Part shown: piece by piece, positions 7,871 to 41,118 of the stretch
How positions within the stretch are numbered: the stretch's first letter is position 1
Layout of the letters: every line of letters starts with the position of its first letter
From: a virus
Virus genome (UHGV): UHGV-1410950
Length of the DNA stretch: 64,000 nt
Direction: 5' to 3' (one strand)
Translations under genes and position numbers: made by a program
The notes under the pieces: model-generated
What the model saw: only the letters and a program-made list of their open reading frames with translations
Database searches by the model: none
Told to the model about the DNA's origin: nothing

Positions 7871-10654
7871 TTACCTCGTTGCGAAGCTGCGCGGTTGGCT
7901 AAAGCTGGAGCTCACTGGCAGCTGTTCGGTTTTAATAACCTGCCCCGACGAATCTTTATGCTGTACCTCCAGCGGAGCCGCCTTAATATCAATCCGTCCA
8001 CCAGTCTGAGGCATCGTTTTCGGGTCGATGTTGTTCAGGTCTTTCAGCTTATCTTCCCACGCATAGACGCCCGGCGCATAGTTCCGGTTTTCAGATGTGT
8101 AACGCCCGGCCCCGGTACCGCCGTTGTAACGGCTCAGGGCTTCATATTCGTTACCACCAGCAGCATCCAGATCGTCGCGGAGGTGCGCAGCACCAGCCAT
8201 GATATTCCCGCGTTGGGTGTAGATATCGTACTGGCGCATATATTTGGCGTTCCACTTCGGTACCAGCTGAGCAGCACCGATAGCGCCAGCGCGGCTGACC
8301 GCTTTGTTACTGAAACGGGATTCCTGCGCGATCAGTCCACGTAACAGGCTTGGGCGGATGTTGTACTTCTTCGCCGCGTCCTGAATGTCCTTTTCCATGC
8401 TTTTCGCGCGCGCAGCCATATCGCCCGGCACGTTCTCCGGCAGACTGGCTTTCGCGTTTTCGATCAGCGCCGCAGGTGAATCACCCAGACCTGAGGTATC
8501 AATCGCCCCGGTCTCAGTAGCCGTCAGGCCGTTGCCGTATGCAGCTGTGTGCGCGGCATCGAATCCGACCTGATTATATGCAGCCAGCTCCTGCTGCGTG
8601 ATCTGCTGCTGACGTTTCAGAGCACGGTAGCGGTCGCCTTCCGGGCCCATAGTTTGCAGCCCGACGCCTTTGTTTTGCAGGGCCTTCATTTCTTCGCCAT
8701 AGGCGTCGATACGCCAGCCATACTTGCGCTGACCACGGCGCAGCTGATCCTGACGCATCCCCTTCTCGTAATCGCTGCGCAGGCTGTCCTCGCTGCCACC
8801 AGTCATCTTGACCAGCGCCATGCGCATCACGTCCAGCGAAGGCAGAGCACGATCCGCGAAGCGGGTAAACGTGTTGTCCAGCTTCGCCACGTTATCGCGG
8901 ATCTGGCTACCTTCGGTTTTGGTACCACCATGGACGCTGACCAGCTCAGCCATGATGTCTTTCAGCTTCTCGGCATCATTGCCCTTATACGCACCCATCA
9001 GACGGGAGCGCTCGGAATCGGTCAGGTCTTTGCGGCCCAGATAGTCCTTCGCCATGTTGCCAAGGCCAGCGCCACCGCCTTCGATGATCCCCATCTGCGC
9101 CATCAGCTGCGGGTTGACGTTCAGCCCCAGACGTTTGGCGCGGGTATCAGCCCCGGTCAGCTGCGTCATTGAGGTATTGGCGAGGGTCATCGCCTCGTTG
9201 ACGCCAGTCCCCAGATGGTTAGCCAGCGCCATGTAATACTCAGGCGTGCCCTGCCCGTACTGGCGAGCCATCTGGCGTTTAACCATGTCAAACATGGTTG
9301 TACTGCCCTGCGGGCCAGCACCAAAGGCGCGACCGTATGGCGTATTAGCACCAAAGGCTGAGCTCAGCGTGCCAAACATCCCGGTTTCTTGGAATGATCG
9401 CAGCTGGTACGGGTTCAGGCCAGCAGCCATGCCCATTCTGGCGGTGAAGGCTTGGGATGCTTCGCCCATGTTTCCACCGCGCGTCAGAGAGGCGTTGACG
9501 CGGCTAAGGAGCGATGCCGCACCCTGCACATCCATGCCCGGCAATCCAGTTTGCATCAGGCCAGCCAGTGCGCCGCCATAGCCAGCGACGTTTGGCCCGG
9601 TCAGGCTTTGGCGTGCTGCCGTAGTGGCGAAGTTGGTGATCGCCTCCATGGCTTCATTGGCCTGCCCGAAAGCGCCTGATTTGCCGATAGCCTCACCGAT
9701 CAGCGCCCCCATGCGGCGAGTGTCCTGATCGGATCGACCGATATTAGCTCCGCGCAAACGGGCCATGCTCCCGGCGACGCCAGTCGGATCCAGCCCGAAG
9801 GAACGGGCCAGACCGCCTGAGGTCAGCAGCCCGGTCATTGGGTTCTCGCCCGGTCGCAGGTTTGCGCGGGAATAAGCTGACGCCATCGCAATGGCGTCTG
9901 AGGTCTTCATGCCCAGCGCATCAGCCAGCCCGCTAGGGCCACCGATAGCGCGTTTCCACGCCGCATAGGAGGCAACGCCCCCGACTTGGCGATAGAGTTT
10001 GTCCAGGCCGATTGCGTTATCCTGAGCCTGCCCGACCTTATCAGCGATAGCGCCGATGATTTTGCCGACGCCAAGCGCCGCCAGACCACCGACGAGGCCC
10101 ATAAGGCCAGCGCCAGCGCCACCAGAAAGGCCGGAGCTCAGCGCGTTGGACATTACACCACCTACCGGGCCAAACGCTCGCAGCCCGGATTGCATGACGT
10201 TAACCCCCTGAGCACCCCAGCCCTGCCTCCAGTTGTTTGGTACCGGAGGATTGTTTGGGTTTGGGTTCGGAGGTGTCGGTGTGCGCGGTGGCTTAGGCTT
10301 TGGGTTGTCGTCAAACTCCACGCCAAGGAATTGCAGCATGTTCTGCATTTTCTTGATGCGCTCAGCCTGATCGCCATACATCTTTTTCCAGTCTGCCATG
10401 AGCGGGTTAGTCTGGCCTTGGCCCGTCTTGCCCATGGTCGTTTTGAGCTCAGTCTGGATTTTCAGCAGCTTCTGCATCTGCTTGATGAAGGCGTCCAGAT
10501 CCTCTTTCGACTTGACGTTAATCGGCTCGAATTTCTGGTTGTTTGCCTGACCGACCTGCGACGCGAGGATGCGGATCTGGTCGTTAACCATCTGGATCTG
10601 CTGTTTCAGGTCTGCCGCATCGAACTGGGCACTAACCGGAATTTTAATTGCCAT
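7871..10654 (-). CDS. Tail tape-measure protein with C-terminal soluble lytic transglycosylase (SLT) domain
   Basis: 927 aa, Gly/Ala/Met-rich and coiled-coil-like, as expected for a tape measure. The C-terminus carries the SLT signature (AQESRFSNKAVSRAGAIGAAQLVPKW). It follows the G/GT-type chaperone pair. Confidence 0.8.
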   Translation of the reverse strand: MAIKIPVSAQFDAADLKQQIQMVNDQIRILASQVGQANNQKFEPINVKSKEDLDAFIKQMQKLLKIQTELKTTMGKTGQGQTNPLMADWKKMYGDQAERIKKMQNMLQFLGVEFDDNPKPKPPRTPTPPNPNPNNPPVPNNWRQGWGAQGVNVMQSGLRAFGPVGGVMSNALSSGLSGGAGAGLMGLVGGLAALGVGKIIGAIADKVGQAQDNAIGLDKLYRQVGGVASYAAWKRAIGGPSGLADALGMKTSDAIAMASAYSRANLRPGENPMTGLLTSGGLARSFGLDPTGVAGSMARLRGANIGRSDQDTRRMGALIGEAIGKSGAFGQANEAMEAITNFATTAARQSLTGPNVAGYGGALAGLMQTGLPGMDVQGAASLLSRVNASLTRGGNMGEASQAFTARMGMAAGLNPYQLRSFQETGMFGTLSSAFGANTPYGRAFGAGPQGSTTMFDMVKRQMARQYGQGTPEYYMALANHLGTGVNEAMTLANTSMTQLTGADTRAKRLGLNVNPQLMAQMGIIEGGGAGLGNMAKDYLGRKDLTDSERSRLMGAYKGNDAEKLKDIMAELVSVHGGTKTEGSQIRDNVAKLDNTFTRFADRALPSLDVMRMALVKMTGGSEDSLRSDYEKGMRQDQLRRGQRKYGWRIDAYGEEMKALQNKGVGLQTMGPEGDRYRALKRQQQITQQELAAYNQVGFDAAHTAAYGNGLTATETGAIDTSGLGDSPAALIENAKASLPENVPGDMAARAKSMEKDIQDAAKKYNIRPSLLRGLIAQESRFSNKAVSRAGAIGAAQLVPKWNAKYMRQYDIYTQRGNIMAGAAHLRDDLDAAGGNEYEALSRYNGGTGAGRYTSENRNYAPGVYAWEDKLKDLNNIDPKTMPQTGGRIDIKAAPLEVQHKDSSGQVIKTEQLPVSSSFSQPRSFATR

Positions 10655-20939: not shown

Positions 20940-21824
20940 TTAGCCTCTTTGTTGTAAGGAAATATCGCTCAGAAAGCGATGCACCCAAGCAGCCGCCTCG
21001 GATGGCGACATACTAAAGTTTGCGGCGCAGTATTGCGCCAGACCTTCTTCTGAGGTCAGGTAATCGGCGGTGATAGCACCGGAGATTAACGCGACGCTCA
21101 GCTGGTCACGGAACTCGTAATAGCTGATCGGCTGGTTGCTGCCCGTATCAAGCGACTGCACACCAAAGGCACCGCCGCCAGTCAGCTGGCTCATATCGCT
21201 GCAATAAGACGCCTCCAGCGCCTTGCTCAGCACGATCCCGCCCATGGATTTGGTCAGGGTGCCGATAGGAGACAGGGAGGCAGTGCGCAGATGCTGGTTA
21301 ACTGGCGTCTGGGACAGCGCGATATTCGTCCAGCGGACTTTATCGACCATTGTGACTTTTTGCTGGGTTTCCGGGTCTACCTGCACGCTTTTAGCGAGCA
21401 CGGCACCACCGACAGAAGGGTACCAGCGCTGAGGCGGATTAAGCTGCGTCATTGATTCCCAGACCATGTTTGCATTCTCAGCCATCGGGCCAGTGCCCTC
21501 ATACAGCTGCGCTTTTACAAACGTGGTGTTGCCATCGATCTTGACATCGACCGGGCGACCAATTTCGTAGCTTTTGGCTTCTTTGAGCGACATCCCCAGC
21601 TTTTGCCCGATAACGGTAAAGTGGTCAATGTCGATGTTACCGAACTTTAAAAACAGGTCGGTACTCTCAGCGAGGGCCTTAGCCATGATCTTCTCATTCG
21701 TCTGGTCGAGCCCTTCATTGGACGCCTCCAGAAAGATAAAACGCTTCCCGCCCTCGGCTTTCGCGTGGGCTTTGAGCATCATATCCATGCGGATAAGGTT
21801 GTCGGTATTCTCGGTGTCGATCAT
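20940..21824 (-). CDS. Prohead protease / scaffold-like protein (294 aa)
   Basis: Lies between the MuF-like gene and the scaffold. Its C-terminus shares the GGGAFGVQSLDT motif with the capsid N-terminus. Catalytic residues not verified. Confidence 0.4.
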   Translation of the reverse strand: MIDTENTDNLIRMDMMLKAHAKAEGGKRFIFLEASNEGLDQTNEKIMAKALAESTDLFLKFGNIDIDHFTVIGQKLGMSLKEAKSYEIGRPVDVKIDGNTTFVKAQLYEGTGPMAENANMVWESMTQLNPPQRWYPSVGGAVLAKSVQVDPETQQKVTMVDKVRWTNIALSQTPVNQHLRTASLSPIGTLTKSMGGIVLSKALEASYCSDMSQLTGGGAFGVQSLDTGSNQPISYYEFRDQLSVALISGAITADYLTSEEGLAQYCAANFSMSPSEAAAWVHRFLSDISLQQRG

Positions 21825-32182: not shown

Positions 32183-32270
32183 TTCCGGGATCTCTCTTGT
32201 TCAGGAATAGCTGACATTCTGGAATCACTACGGGGAAATAAAAAGCCCGGACGGTGCCGGGCTGGAAGGT

Positions 32271-33014: not shown

Positions 33015-33878
33015 TCAATCTTTTTTCTTACCTAAATACGCGTCAAGCACCATTTGGTCGGTCTTCATGTTCATCAGCTCGCGCAGCTTGTCTTTCGGTG
33101 CTAGCTTGACGGCCTGCGTTTCCCAGCCCATTGCCACCGGGGATCCTCCGACGCGCTTCGCCAGATACATGCGAGAAACGGACGTGGTGCGCTCAAAGTC
33201 ACCCAGTACGCCAGTGATCTCGATCTGTAGCCCTGACTCCTCCCATGTCTCTTTTATGGCGTTCTGCTGGAGCGTGAGCCCCGGCTCAGTACCACCCTTC
33301 GGGAAAGTGTTCTGGTAGCCGCCGAAAGCGTTGGTCGGGCTGATAATCCACACGCGACCGTCAGGCTCCTCAATGATGACGCCGGACGCCGGACGCTTCC
33401 CGGCTGGTACCATTAACGGCTGCTCGGTCATCTGTTTGGTACCCTTCACAAAAGCCCATCCCGCGTCGGTCTTCGGTGCTCCAGTCCACGGCGCGACCGG
33501 GACGCCGTTCAGCTCCTGCGGCGCAGCACCATTAGGCGTGAAGGTGGCCACCTCGTTGCTTGCTGCCCACGTTGGCGCTTCGGTCGGCTTACTCGGATGG
33601 TTTACCACGACGCGATTGCCCTTCTCCCCTAAGCGTGGGTGATGGACAATTTTCGTCGGCATTCCTTTGCTGGCGGTCGTCCTGTGCGTGCCGTATGGCG
33701 TTGTGGGCAGCGTTGGTTTGCGGAAATAGGCTTTCTTGGCCTGAGGCTTCGCAGGCGCTTTGGGGGCCGCAGGCGCGTCAGGTTTGGCTGCTGCCTTCCC
33801 GTTGTCGTGCGGCTTCACCCAGACGCCATCGCTCCGGCGATAACCCTTCACCTGCGCTTTCAGGAAAAGTTTAGTCAT
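33015..33878 (-). CDS. Nudix hydrolase with Pro/Ala/Lys-rich N-terminal extension
   Basis: Start ATG at 33878 with a GGAAGG RBS, overlapping the upstream stop (AATGACTAA). Nudix box GGTEPGLTLQQNAIKETWEESGL matches GGxxExGExxxxAAxREx2EExG with Lys in place of Arg. The N-terminus contains AKPDAPAAPKAPAKPQAKK. Confidence 0.65.
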   Translation of the reverse strand: MTKLFLKAQVKGYRRSDGVWVKPHDNGKAAAKPDAPAAPKAPAKPQAKKAYFRKPTLPTTPYGTHRTTASKGMPTKIVHHPRLGEKGNRVVVNHPSKPTEAPTWAASNEVATFTPNGAAPQELNGVPVAPWTGAPKTDAGWAFVKGTKQMTEQPLMVPAGKRPASGVIIEEPDGRVWIISPTNAFGGYQNTFPKGGTEPGLTLQQNAIKETWEESGLQIEITGVLGDFERTTSVSRMYLAKRVGGSPVAMGWETQAVKLAPKDKLRELMNMKTDQMVLDAYLGKKKD

Positions 33879-34353
33879 TGCCTTCCACTCCCAGCATCCA
33901 CTGCGCCATGGATTCGACGCTGTTCTGCACGCGGGCGGCGATCTCAGCATCCTTTCCGCCCTTGTCAAATGCCTGGTAAATACTGATCGCAAAGCGGGCC
34001 ATAGCGTGCGCGACGATCAGCGCGGGATCCGTTTCATCCTTCGCCAGCCCCTTCACGTTCTGAATCCAGCGCGGCAGCGCGAAGTCATTCCAGCCCGGCA
34101 GCACGCTAAAGCCTGCGGTGTTACCCACAAAGATGTTAGCGGTGTTCAGCGCCTGCGCACGGTCGGCCTCCAGCGCTTCTTTCTCAGTCATCTGGTTGGC
34201 CTGCACCTTAGCGATGCGTCCCACGATGTCCTTGGCGAAGTTATTCAGGATGGTGCGTGCCACGTTGATATCGCCCAGATAAACGCTGCCATCAGCAGCG
34301 TTCAGACCTTCGATAAACCACGTTGGATCAGTATGTCGGTTCAATTCAGCCAC
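33871..34353 (-). CDS. Hypothetical protein (160 aa), translationally coupled to the Nudix gene
   Basis: Its stop overlaps the Nudix start. Lies immediately downstream of the giant gene. Confidence 0.45.
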   Translation of the reverse strand: MAELNRHTDPTWFIEGLNAADGSVYLGDINVARTILNNFAKDIVGRIAKVQANQMTEKEALEADRAQALNTANIFVGNTAGFSVLPGWNDFALPRWIQNVKGLAKDETDPALIVAHAMARFAISIYQAFDKGGKDAEIAARVQNSVESMAQWMLGVEGND

Positions 34354-34362
34354 AGAGCCCCC

Positions 34363-37300
34363 TTATACGCTCGGCAGGATGATACATTCCACAACGGTCA
34401 TGCCGCTGCCGCCAAAGCCATCGGCGTCCTTAGTCCCCGATTCGTTCACCTTAGTGATGAGGAGGCGGGTATTAGGTGGCAGGATAATTTCTTTTTCCCC
34501 GGTATGGTGCGAGATAGATCCACCACTCGGAAGCGAGCCAGCGCCCGCATAGATACCTTTTACGCCGGGGCCTGCTGTCATTTTGAGGTGAATATTACCA
34601 CTCCACACGTCTGGACTGATAGACGTGGACATAATTGCAGGCTCCATGATGACCTTGCCTACCGACGCTTTCAGCTTGGAGAGATCACCGCTGCCCAGAC
34701 TGAATTTGCGCCCGAACGTGGTACCCGGCGAAATTTCATGGCCCATACCAGACAGCGCCTGCGCTGCTGCTTTCGCTTCTGCGCTTGGGTTGCCCTTCCA
34801 CAGTCCGCTGTTCATCTGCTTATAACTGCTACCAGTATACGCCTGCACGGCCTGTTTTTGTGTCATCGGCAGCTTTTCCCACACTTCCTGTGCTGCTTTG
34901 GCATAAGTGTTTGTGGTCAGCGTGCCAGCCTTGAACGTGGTTTTAGTAATGCCAAGGTCTTCCGGCTCAACAATCCCCGGATGGCCCAGTACCAGCAGGT
35001 TCCCGATCTTGTCTGCATCGTTACCGCTCCAGTTTTCCGGCTTGTATTCTTCGTGCATCGAATACAGCGGGTGATCGCCGCCGATACGGAACTGCTCGGC
35101 TTCATGCCCGGCAAGCTGGCTCTTAATCTCGTTAATCGCCTGCATCGCGTAGCCTTTGATATGCTGCGATGGGTGATCGAGCACTGGCACCTGTCCGGTA
35201 ACAGCTCCGGTGTCTTTGTCAAAGGTTGGCGCGGTCAGGCCGCGAATGGCTTCCGGGTCTCCGGTCAGCGCCGCAGAATAAATGGCCTGCGCCGCGTCGT
35301 GGTTCCCTTTGTTCAGGAACTCTTTGGAGGACGGGCCGGATTTGCCAACGCCAGACCAGTTGAGGAAGTCAGGCGGGGTACTGATTTTCTCCGGCTTGAA
35401 TTTCTGCATTTTGATGATCTTCTCGGCTTCCGGGTACTTCTCAGCCAGATACTCTTTGCGCTTGATGAGCGTTTCCACCAGCTCCTTTTTCGCCTTATCA
35501 TCGCCCGGCCCATACTGGTTGACCATGTGCGCAATTTTGGCGTCGGAGATAGCCAGTACCTTGGAGACAGACGCGGCGATATCGGCCTCAGTCATGCCAC
35601 CGAAGACGGCTGCGCTGTTCGCGTTCATCTTCGGATCCATCAGTGACTCCAGCTCCTTAACGACAGGGCCAAATTCTTTCTTCGCACCCTGCGCACGGAA
35701 CATCAGCGAGCCGCCCGCATCGACGCGGTGAATGGTGCCGTCATCTTTCAGCTGCACGTTGTCTTTCGCCAGCCCCACGACATCCCAGTTACCCAGCCAC
35801 GCATCAACGGCGAAGCCTTCCAGCATCCCCTTGGCCTTCGCCAGCGCTGCATGGGTTTTGGCCTTCTTGATGTTCTCCCACTTCGAGGCAATAGCCATTT
35901 TCCCGTCCTTGGTGACGATCATGGCGTCCTGCGCGGACAGCCCAGCGGCGCTATACAGTTTCGCTGCCAGCACCTCAGCCTTGGCGTGCTCCTCGTTATC
36001 CGGGAACTTCACATACCATTCCTGCCCATCGGCGTCCTTCATTTTCATGCCTTCATTCGAACCGCCTTGGTTGCCCCCGGTCACTGTCCACTCATCGACG
36101 CTGATCGGCTCTTTCTTCTTCCACTGGTACTTTTTGACCTCCATCGGGCCATCAGCGGCAAGGCCATTCTCTGCCGGGTTGCTGGTCGCGGCGGTAGCCT
36201 TCATCAGCTGCGCGACGCCATTCATAGCATAGGTGCCATTCACCTCAGGGTTATAACCTGACTTAACCTTTATCCCATTAGCCATCAGCATCATCGACGC
36301 ATATTGCGCCAGCGCCTTTTTACCCGGCGCGGTCGGGCCATACTCCGTTGAGACCTTAATTTTCATCCCAAACTCGCCATAAATCAGCATCGAACCATCG
36401 GCTTTCTGCATGATGACGCCTTTGGTGCCGCCGCCTTTGGTCAGCTTGGCTTTGAGGTTATCTACATATTTCATGTAGTGATCCTGCTGCCAAGCGCTCA
36501 GGCCAAGCGCAGCGAAGTCAGGCGCTGGGATCTCGTCAGGATTGGCCCTAACCCAGCGCCCGTTTTTCAGGATCAGCATCCCGTTGGCACCCGGCTTCAT
36601 GTCGCCTTCTTTTGGGCCATCGTCGGCCTTCTTCGCATCTTCTTCGGCTACGGTATTCTTGATAGCCGTCAGGATCCCGTCGATAGCCACAGTGGCAAAA
36701 TCGTTGATGGTCAGCACGCTTTTAATGGTGCTGACTGCATCAACCTTGTCCGGGTTGGCGTCGTAGTATTCCTTGCACGCCACCGATGCTTTGACGACCT
36801 TTTGCAGCCCGCTTTTGGTCTCCGCGATGCTCTTGATGTCGTCCAGCAGTTTCAGGTCAATCATTCCCAGATCCGGCGCGGCAGTTTCCGGTGCTGGCGC
36901 AGGCTCCTCAGCTCCGGTGATCTGATCCTGTACAAAGGTCATGGTGCTGATTGCGTAATCAGTCATGCTCATTTTGACCAGATCGGTTCCCTGATTCGCC
37001 ATCAGCGCATACGCGGATTCTTTGACGCTGTTCAGCACAGCCTCTTTCATTTCCTTCGAGTCGGTGTACTTCGCCAGCATCGCCATCGCTGCCAGACCAT
37101 CCAGTGCATCGGCATCCGCCATGCTATCGCCTTTGTAGCTGGCTTTCGGGATCCCCTGCGGGACGCCGTGCATGTTGATGCTGTCTTTCAGTGTGGACTG
37201 TAGGACAGGGATATGTGACACGTTATCGCCTGCGGCCTTCACGATGTCCTGATAGGTGGCAGGGTTGTCGCCTTTCTTCGCCACGTACTCCTGCACAGCC

Positions 37301-40300
37301 ATCAGCGTTTCGAGGTTGTCTTTGGCGTTGTTGAAGACCAGCCCAAGGTCATACATGTTTTTCGGCTTTTCCGGCGCAGCGGTCAGCTTGCTGATAACCT
37401 CAGCCATGTACTCCTTGTACTTATTACCGTTGATCGTGGTGCCCGGCGTCGCGTTCTGCTCATATTTCATGGCCTCGATGAGCAGCTTTTTGCTGTTCTC
37501 ATCCTTCGCCAGTGTTGCGGCGATGGCGTAGCCCTGAAAATCAGTTGCCTCGGTCGAGTAGAAACCAACATCCGGCTTAATTGGCAGATTGAACGGCTTC
37601 CCGTGCTTCTTAAAGTAATCCTGCCCGATTTCAGACGCGGCGTAGACGTGCCCGCTATTCATTTTCAGGATGTTGTCGATAACGGTCGTGTATGCGCCCT
37701 TATCGCCATTGTTGTCCTTGATGAATTCCAGACCGATAGCACTCGCATCATCGCCGTTAGCGCCAGCCAACGCCTGTTTGAGCGCCACAATCTCGCTGCC
37801 CGCGCTGCCATTTGCTGAGGTCTCAGGCATGTCCTGCTGTAAGATCCAGTGCCCGTTATGGAAGACCAGCGTACCGCCTTTACCCTGCTTGGTATCACCC
37901 TCCTGCGGGCCATCCTCTACCAGCCACTTATTGACCTCCTGCTGGTACAGTTTAACCTGCACAGCAGCTGGCTCGGAAAGGTGAAGCTCGCTCAGCTCAT
38001 TAAAGTGCTTGGCGATCACATCAGGATCCGATTCTTTGCCTTTGTGAATTTCTTCGGCAATGACGTTATAGAGGGTCTGCACTTTCGTGCCATAGGTTTT
38101 CACCGTATCGCTGGTTGGTGATACCAGAGGTTTTTCTGGCTCAGTGCCGTAAGTCTCGCTCCACCATTTCCCGTAGGCTTTCTTACCTGCGATAAAGAAT
38201 TCATTTGCCAGCTCGTTAAAGCCATTGTCCTTCATGGCCTCAGCCATCGCCACCAGATGCGGCGCATCGTGACCGTTAGCCGTCATCCAGTCGCCAGCCA
38301 TCGCATCGGCTTGCTTTTCGTCCTTGGCATCTGTCAGCATGTCAAACGCACTTTCCCACAGAGCGTAATCGTTCAGGATCGCTTTCTTCTCCTGCTTACG
38401 CTCATGCTTAGTGGCAGTCTGCTCGGATTTCGCCGCAGCCTGAGACTTCTCGGCCCATGAATCGTACAGCTTCCCGACGCTGGACTCGGAGAAGGCCAGA
38501 TCGCTACCGTAATAGGTAGACGCCTGCTCAATGAATGCCTCGCCTTTTGTCTTCGCCCACTCGTTGAACTCAGCCACATCGGCAAAATCCGGCAGCTGCG
38601 GCTCAGGGGTTGGCGCACGCTCCTGCTTGATCTGCGGTGGCGTCGGCAGGGATTTCACGGAGATATCGCCCAGCTCTTTCTTGGCGGCGGTCACGGCTTC
38701 GATGATCCACGCGGACAGATCAACCTTCTGGAAGGCATCAATCAGGTTCTGGTCATCACGGATCACTGTCACCATGTCGTTGATGTTGTCCACAGCCAGC
38801 GCCCAGTTACCCGCGTTGAGGTCATTCTGGATGTCCTCACAGATGCCGTCGATAAACGCATCACCAGTCTGCGGAGGATTGGAGAAAGTCTTCACTCCCT
38901 CAGGCTTAGGCGCAGCAGCAAGGCCCAGAGACTCCGCCAGATTGACCGCAGGCTCTTTGCCAGCCATTACCTGCTGGTAAACCTCATTCTGCGTGTTGGA
39001 GAAGCCGGAGATATGGCCCCAGTCGCCCTTCTCGTTAACCCACATACCAGAGCCCGGATTCTTCGGATCCGCGACGATGACTGCGCTGGTATTGGTCGGG
39101 TAAACGCCTGCGTCTGGAGTCGTGGACAGCACGCCATTCCACATGTTCTTGATGACGTTTTGCTGCTTCTTGGTCAGGTGATTCGGCTTGCCCAGCTCCA
39201 CCAGCTCGGTCGGGTACTCGCTATGGTGATAGTCGGAAATGTAGCCCAGATTGTCCGGGGTTTTGGTGTTGCCACCAAAGCCGATCAGTTTCAGGTACTG
39301 GCCCGCTTGGAACGGTTTCGCCAGCGGCTCCCCCTTCTTGCTCATAGGCCATGCGGTCGCGTGCCCCATCAGCACTTTCAGGTACGGGTTGCCGTCCTTG
39401 TCATAGGTCTGGATGATCGAGCCAGCAGGCAGGTTAGGCATGTCAGAGATAGACAGCTTCTGGCCCTTTTTGAACTCACCAGCGACAGGCTGATCCTTGA
39501 GCGGCTCGCCAGTCTCCTGATTGTGCCAGCGACCGTCTTTGAAGACCTGCATCCCGTTTTTGCCCATGCGGGTTTCACCTTCCTGCGGGCCTTCCTCAGC
39601 CCGGACGGCTTTCTGCTGCTCAACCTCGGCGCTGGCCTTCTGATCCTTTTCTGCCTGGCTAAACTGGCCCAGCATTGGATGCACGGCGTCTTTGCCGATG
39701 ACCACTTTGATGTCAGGGTAGCCCAGCGCTGCCAGCGCGTTATTCGCAGCCTTGGCGACTTTGAGCCCGTAGGTGTTTTTGCCGTAGGTCATCGCCAGAA
39801 TGCCGTTGATGTTGCCTACTTCGCCAGCGGCCTTGATAGCGGCGATCTGCGCGTTGTAGCTCTTGGCATTCTTAATGTTCTCCGCGACGGCGAACTGGCT
39901 CCAGTCGATAGCTTCCATGGCCTTCTTCGACACGGATGCTTTCGGGGCTGGCTTGCCTTCGGCGGTGTCCGGCTGCGCCGGGGAGGTAGCGATGATTTCA
40001 ACCGCGCTCAATGGGCTCGGCTCCTCGGACTGCACCAGCGGCTTATTCGGATTCTCACCCGTCAGCAGCGCCAGCTTTTGCCCGTAGAGGTTCAGCAGCT
40101 TTTTGCTGTTCGGGGTGATGCCCTTCCAGCTTTTCGCCTTGCTCTTGATAGCTTCCAGCTCCGCCAGACTGGTGGCGTCGATGACCTTCTGAGCCTGCGC
40201 CTCATACGCGGTGCGCACGCCAGTGGAGTTTTTGCCGGATTCAAATTTAGGCATGACGATTTCGCCTGGCTTCGGTGCTTCGGCAGCAGGTGTTGAGGCT

Positions 40301-41118: not shown

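Follow-up and report, generated by a model that had tools for sequence, protein, structure and literature searches.

Phages are known to carry injected effectors of the polyvalent and Alt-like kinds, and the giant protein described here, which joins a kinase and an ADP-ribosyltransferase (ART) in one chain, is probably a variant of them. T4 Alt, a single-enzyme protein of ~680 aa, is packaged in the head and injected, and modifies host proteins (PMC9503650). Polyvalent proteins (Iyer et al. 2017, PMC5512222) are giant multidomain proteins encoded by phages and conjugative elements, predicted to be virion-carried and early-acting; the polyvalent kinase lacks a C-lobe and belongs to a His/Asp family found in Verrucomicrobia and Bacteroidetes. 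MuF-fused head effectors combine a conserved N-terminal carrier with variable C-terminal enzymes. The HipA/CtkA kinases, as for example CtkA of Helicobacter pylori, form a further point of reference.

The window, a stretch of 64,000 nucleotides, is ~97% identical to Escherichia phage ECML-606-1, a myovirus. It comes from a myovirus of E. coli/Enterobacter with a genome of ~95 kb, which belongs to the Mecenats66/Dolphis/fHe-Yen8-01 group. Its largest ORF, a single gene of 6.7 kb as already recognized in the first-pass annotation, encodes 2251 aa from an ATG start and shares 97% identity with “hypothetical protein” genes of ECML-606-1 and of Enterobacter phage phiT5282EW. In the relatives this protein begins with Met5, which could place the actual start codon 12 nt further downstream. 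The ORF had initially been placed outside the structural module. Instead, it lies directly upstream of the morphogenesis genes on the same strand: behind it come a 160-aa ORF and a NUDIX gene, together with the genes for tail fibre, TerL, portal, head protease (20940-21824), major capsid protein, sheath and baseplate. The literature on fHe-Yen8-01, ECML-606-1, phiT5282EW and a link between HipA and polyvalent proteins yielded no description of the giant protein, and no paper on fHe-Yen8-01 was found. A search of the plasmid database PLSDB returned only three distant matches and did not confirm ~100-kb Salmonella contigs as catalogued phage-plasmids. The features of the locus are as follows.

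34363..41118, minus strand: giant multidomain polyvalent-type protein, 2251 aa plus stop codon (ORF call, ATG start)
40579..41118, minus strand: conserved N-terminal domain, aa 1-180, with a GYALINGRW motif and the helical unit GDxxAILGxxYGxNTxxKKxxxIANxLL (homologue comparison)
40678-40914, minus strand: first copy of the N-terminal helical unit, aa 69-147 (BLASTP map of homologues)
39721..39954, minus strand: internal repeat of the N-terminal helical unit, aa 389-466 (BLASTP cross-matches among homologues)
39457..39627, minus strand: first DGPxEGDxKxGxxGxLxFxNG[RH]W motif region, aa 498-554 (homologue comparison)
37807..37947, minus strand: second GRW-type motif region, aa 1058-1104
36511..36651, minus strand: third GRW-type motif region, aa 1490-1536, immediately N-terminal to the kinase module
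35404..36102, minus strand: atypical HipA/CtkA/PI4K-II-like kinase domain, aa 1673-1905 (invariant G1686, K1704, E1715, N1777, D1779, N1787, D1800)
34939..35403, minus strand: conserved linker domain, aa 1906-2060, with PPDFxNW...HPSQH motifs (homologue comparison; no Pfam match)
34366..34938, minus strand: predicted C-terminal R-S-ExE mono-ADP-ribosyltransferase domain, aa 2061-2251 (Pfam PF03496, PHROG 802, PDB matches, AF2/Foldseek, motifs)
33871..34353, minus strand: 160-aa ORF, second gene of the cassette (synteny)
33015..33878, minus strand: predicted NUDIX hydrolase, third gene of the cassette, longest ORF reaching 33992 (Pfam NUDIX E=1.7e-11, synteny)
32244..32263, minus strand: terminator-like hairpin and T-run, closing a putative transcription unit before the tail-fibre gene (consensus scan only)
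43081..43109, minus strand: sigma-70-like promoter match, 10/12, upstream of the small genes preceding the giant ORF (consensus scan only, in which the real sequence gave overall fewer promoter matches than shuffled sequence)

The C-terminus is a genuine R-S-ExE ADP-ribosyltransferase by fold and motifs, and the complete R-S-E signature that had been read in the last ~150 aa was borne out. The motifs are YTGSSYKQMNSGLW (aa 2094-2107), FGRKF with R2137, MSTSIS with S2164-T-S2166, and GEKEIILPP with E2208-K-E2210. The match to PF03496 (ADPrib_exo_Tox, aa 2146-2227) scored 36.2 bits, well over the cut-off of 23.4 bits (E=4.9e-9), and is therefore not due to chance. The domain also matches the Alt-like PHROG 802 and, among PDB sequences, SpvB and VahC; an NCBIfam search added nothing further but a weak SpvB match. 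The Foldseek check proposed for this segment agreed: the AF2 model (pLDDT 87.5) matched CDTa, Plx2A, VIP2, C3, iota and SpvB (E 5e-10 to 4e-8), with target-normalised TM scores of up to 0.72, at only 15-22% sequence identity to solved ARTs. In ~90 homologues the R / S-T-S / E-x-E pattern is retained, with K in place of R in a small subgroup, and S2166, E2208 and E2210 are invariant in one alignment (A2). The domain is thus predicted to ADP-ribosylate in an NAD+-dependent manner, and its ExE motif suggests, by precedent, arginine specificity. It shares its fold and residue constellation with T4 Alt and the Alt/VIP2 (R-S-E) clade. Unlike in Alt, however, the ART occupies just the final 190 aa of the 2251-aa protein and always stands behind a kinase and a linker domain.

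The kinase domain has a protein-kinase-like bilobal fold, with CtkA and HipA as nearest structures. Its motifs are GGNQGGSNEG (1681-1690), YVKF with K1704, DAWLGNWD...DN (1772-1787) and VDAGG with D1800. K1704, E1715, D1779, N1787 and D1800, corresponding to the ATP-binding Lys, the helix-C Glu, the catalytic Asp, and the Mg-binding Asn and Asp, do not vary among 27 diverse sequences, nor in a second sample, and suggest an ATP-dependent kinase activity. The first-pass annotation had described an atypical PI3/4-kinase-type core. The quoted motifs and the atypical kinase fold held, but the family did not: the PI3_PI4_kinase Pfam model has no match in the query, the PI3/PI4-kinase family is also not the closest structural match, and type II PI4-kinase, MavQ and actin-fragmin kinase all scored lower than CtkA. 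The query kinase is a distant relative, and not a member, of the Pfam HipA family as defined. Its segment did not match HipA_C or HipA_2 even at E<=10, and only a multi-copy family member (P0099) passed the Pfam threshold (HipA_C 67.5 bits, HipA_2 45.7 bits). It further differs from HipA/CtkA by being embedded in a giant phage protein, and by a catalytic-loop Asp-to-Asn spacing of eight residues, with insertions in some members. Neither a HipB/HipS-type antitoxin nor an HTH antitoxin was found beside the giant gene, whose neighbours are the 160-aa protein and the NUDIX hydrolase.

Because the structural neighbours include the lipid kinases PI4K-II alpha and MavQ, as well as CotH, the fold does not fix the substrate class. 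Enterobacteria are not known to offer a phosphoinositide substrate, which makes a protein substrate more plausible, and the kinase presumably acts on proteins rather than on lipids or small molecules. Although undetected by Pfam in the query, the kinase family comprises thousands of clusters (~6,000) in giant proteins of phages and mobile elements, and is elsewhere fused to phosphatases and SH2 domains. The linker domain lies invariably between kinase and ART, and the combination of the three is conserved from Pseudomonas to Escherichia phages.

The N-terminal ~1650 aa are Ala/Lys/Glu-rich, without an enzymatic signature, and probably helical. They probably form a carrier or targeting scaffold, made of a conserved leader and variable modules split by the GRW motifs. 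The first 180 aa are common to nearly all homologues, irrespective of their cargo, and restricted to the same phage group; a role as packaging or targeting leader is possible. This domain has no match in Pfam or the PDB, and an islet amyloid polypeptide hit of its profile against PDB sequences (E=0.2) was rejected as chance. A word-indexed homology search with the same 180 aa returned no match, yet this type of search is insensitive, since BLAST among the homologues shows conservation. When ten sub-segments were scanned with Pfam at E<=10, all matches were sub-threshold noise, and no domain was assigned to the N-terminal ~1650 aa or to the linker. The GRW motif is not a WGR domain, as the Pfam WGR match in relatives is a separate feature located upstream of the motif.

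In its architecture the giant protein resembles polyvalent proteins, being composed of many domains, at least the N-terminal domain, the repeated helical unit, three GRW units, kinase, linker and ART. Polyvalent signature domains occur in clear homologues with the same N-terminal or kinase modules, namely ART-PolyVal (P0019), InPase and LPD1 (P0091), LPD38 (P0096) and MuF (P0097), but Pfam found no polyvalent-specific domain in the query. Two further differences from the published polyvalent proteins (PMC5512222) are that the ART is of the R-S-E type and that the kinase is HipA/CtkA-like. With the MuF effectors, the protein shares the layout of a conserved carrier followed by variable enzymes. 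The kinase module itself recurs in two MuF proteins, P0097 and P0098, as well as in 4/23 sampled family members. In contrast, the leader here is a different, unannotated domain, and Phage_Mu_F (PF04233) has no match in the query.

The giant protein, the 160-aa protein and the NUDIX hydrolase form a cassette, whose order is kept in relatives, immediately ahead of the genes for tail fibre, terminase and portal. Family searches gave no match for the 160-aa ORF. The nearest PDB sequences of the NUDIX protein are Ap4A hydrolase and RppH, and an ADP-ribose-specific role is unsupported by its sequence. NUDIX domains, which also count among the polyvalent hallmarks, are joined to the kinase module in several homologues (P0092-P0096). 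In Yersinia phage fHe-Yen8-01, the annotation labels the orthologue of the giant protein as phage-particle-associated, and likewise its two partners in the cassette. The same label is given there to TerL, and is thus not specific for stably packaged proteins.

We consider it probable that the ORF encodes a virion-carried, multidomain polyvalent-type effector, which is injected and acts on host proteins. The intact and conserved catalytic residues of both enzyme folds, the modular build of the family, and the conservation of the cassette and its synteny are observed; packaging, injection and the modification of host targets are the steps that we infer from them. As with T4 Alt, whose gene also lies beside morphogenesis genes, the protein is predicted to be packaged in the head and injected. 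It would be synthesized with the adjoining late structural genes and packaged into the particle with the 160-aa protein and the NUDIX hydrolase, and would enter the cell along with the DNA. At the very start of infection, its C-terminal module, an ATP-using HipA/CtkA-like Ser/Thr kinase followed by the linker and an NAD+-using, Arg-specific mono-ART of the C3/VIP2/Alt type, would then modify host proteins, and the cell would be taken over or disarmed. Counted against this explanation were the terminator-like site between the cassette and the tail-fibre gene, the lack of a MuF or other recognised head-targeting domain in Pfam scans of the query, the use of the particle-associated label for TerL, the lipid kinases among the structural neighbours, and the ~1650 aa to which no function was assigned.

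Alternatively, the protein could be a cytoplasmic host-takeover enzyme, made after infection and not packaged, as are T4 ModA/ModB and the gp0.7 kinase of T7, with its presence in particle preparations due to contamination. A long same-strand run of small early/middle-type genes precedes the giant gene, and the terminator-like hairpin, the missing capsid-targeting domain and the labelling of the non-structural TerL would all suit such an enzyme. However, if expression suffices, there is little reason for a carrier of 240 kDa whose leader is conserved and whose cargo can be exchanged. The fusion of the same kinase module to MuF head proteins, the conserved position beside the terminase and portal genes, and the particle-associated flag on all three cassette proteins also argue against it, and we regard this explanation as unlikely. 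Still less probable is a primarily structural role inside the head or in the ejection channel, comparable to that of T7 gp15/gp16 or of the N4 vRNAP scaffold, in which the enzymatic domains are secondary cargo or inactive. The size of the protein, its probably helical composition and its adjoining morphogenesis genes speak for such a role. Yet conservation across the family peaks in the C-terminal 580 aa that carry the enzymes, where the catalytic residues do not vary, whereas the middle region differs among members in both length and content (1246-2930 aa). Furthermore, an SLT-containing tape-measure-like/ejection protein of 927 aa is separately encoded in the tail module (7871-10654), for which reason the giant protein was rejected as the tape-measure/ejection protein.

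A third reading takes the ART, with or without the kinase, as a polymorphic toxin-immunity-like module directed at competitors, as it might be used in superinfection exclusion or abortive killing, with the 160-aa protein as immunity protein or chaperone. As in polymorphic toxins, three divergent ART subtypes occur at the C-terminus of a conserved scaffold and cargoes are swapped in relatives; a small conserved ORF directly follows the toxin domain, and two toxin-immunity pairs, Tre1-Tri1 (6drh) and Listeria ART-ARH (8za7), are among the nearest ART structures. The 160-aa ORF, though, resembles no known immunity family, ARH and macro included; one relative has it joined to the NUDIX enzyme, and it is itself labelled particle-associated. 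These features make a co-packaged accessory a better fit for the 160-aa protein than a cytoplasmic antidote. No secretion or Rhs/CDI-type delivery domain is present, and we give the toxin-immunity reading little credence.

The injected effector, our preferred explanation, would join the phage enzymes that, like T4 Alt, reprogram the cell before any viral gene expression, and would hard-wire two protein-modifying chemistries, phosphorylation and ADP-ribosylation, in one chain. Defining the kinase substrates would correct the “hypothetical protein” label of the largest gene in a coliphage group whose members are candidates for therapy and biocontrol, and in such uses the toxin-like ART is a safety flag. 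The substrates could also expose new host vulnerabilities, counter-defence mechanisms and enzyme tools. More tentatively, and with doubts outweighing our confidence, the kinase-linker-ART chain and its small-protein and NUDIX partners may represent a widespread, unannotated “dual post-translational modification” weapon. In it, a kinase and an Arg-specific ART delivered from the capsid would cooperate on the same host target, or one would gate the other, and, within seconds after the DNA enters, a central host process or an anti-phage defence would be shut down. If this were true, the kinase family, with its thousands of clusters, would be a major uncharacterised class of effector kinases of phages and mobile elements.

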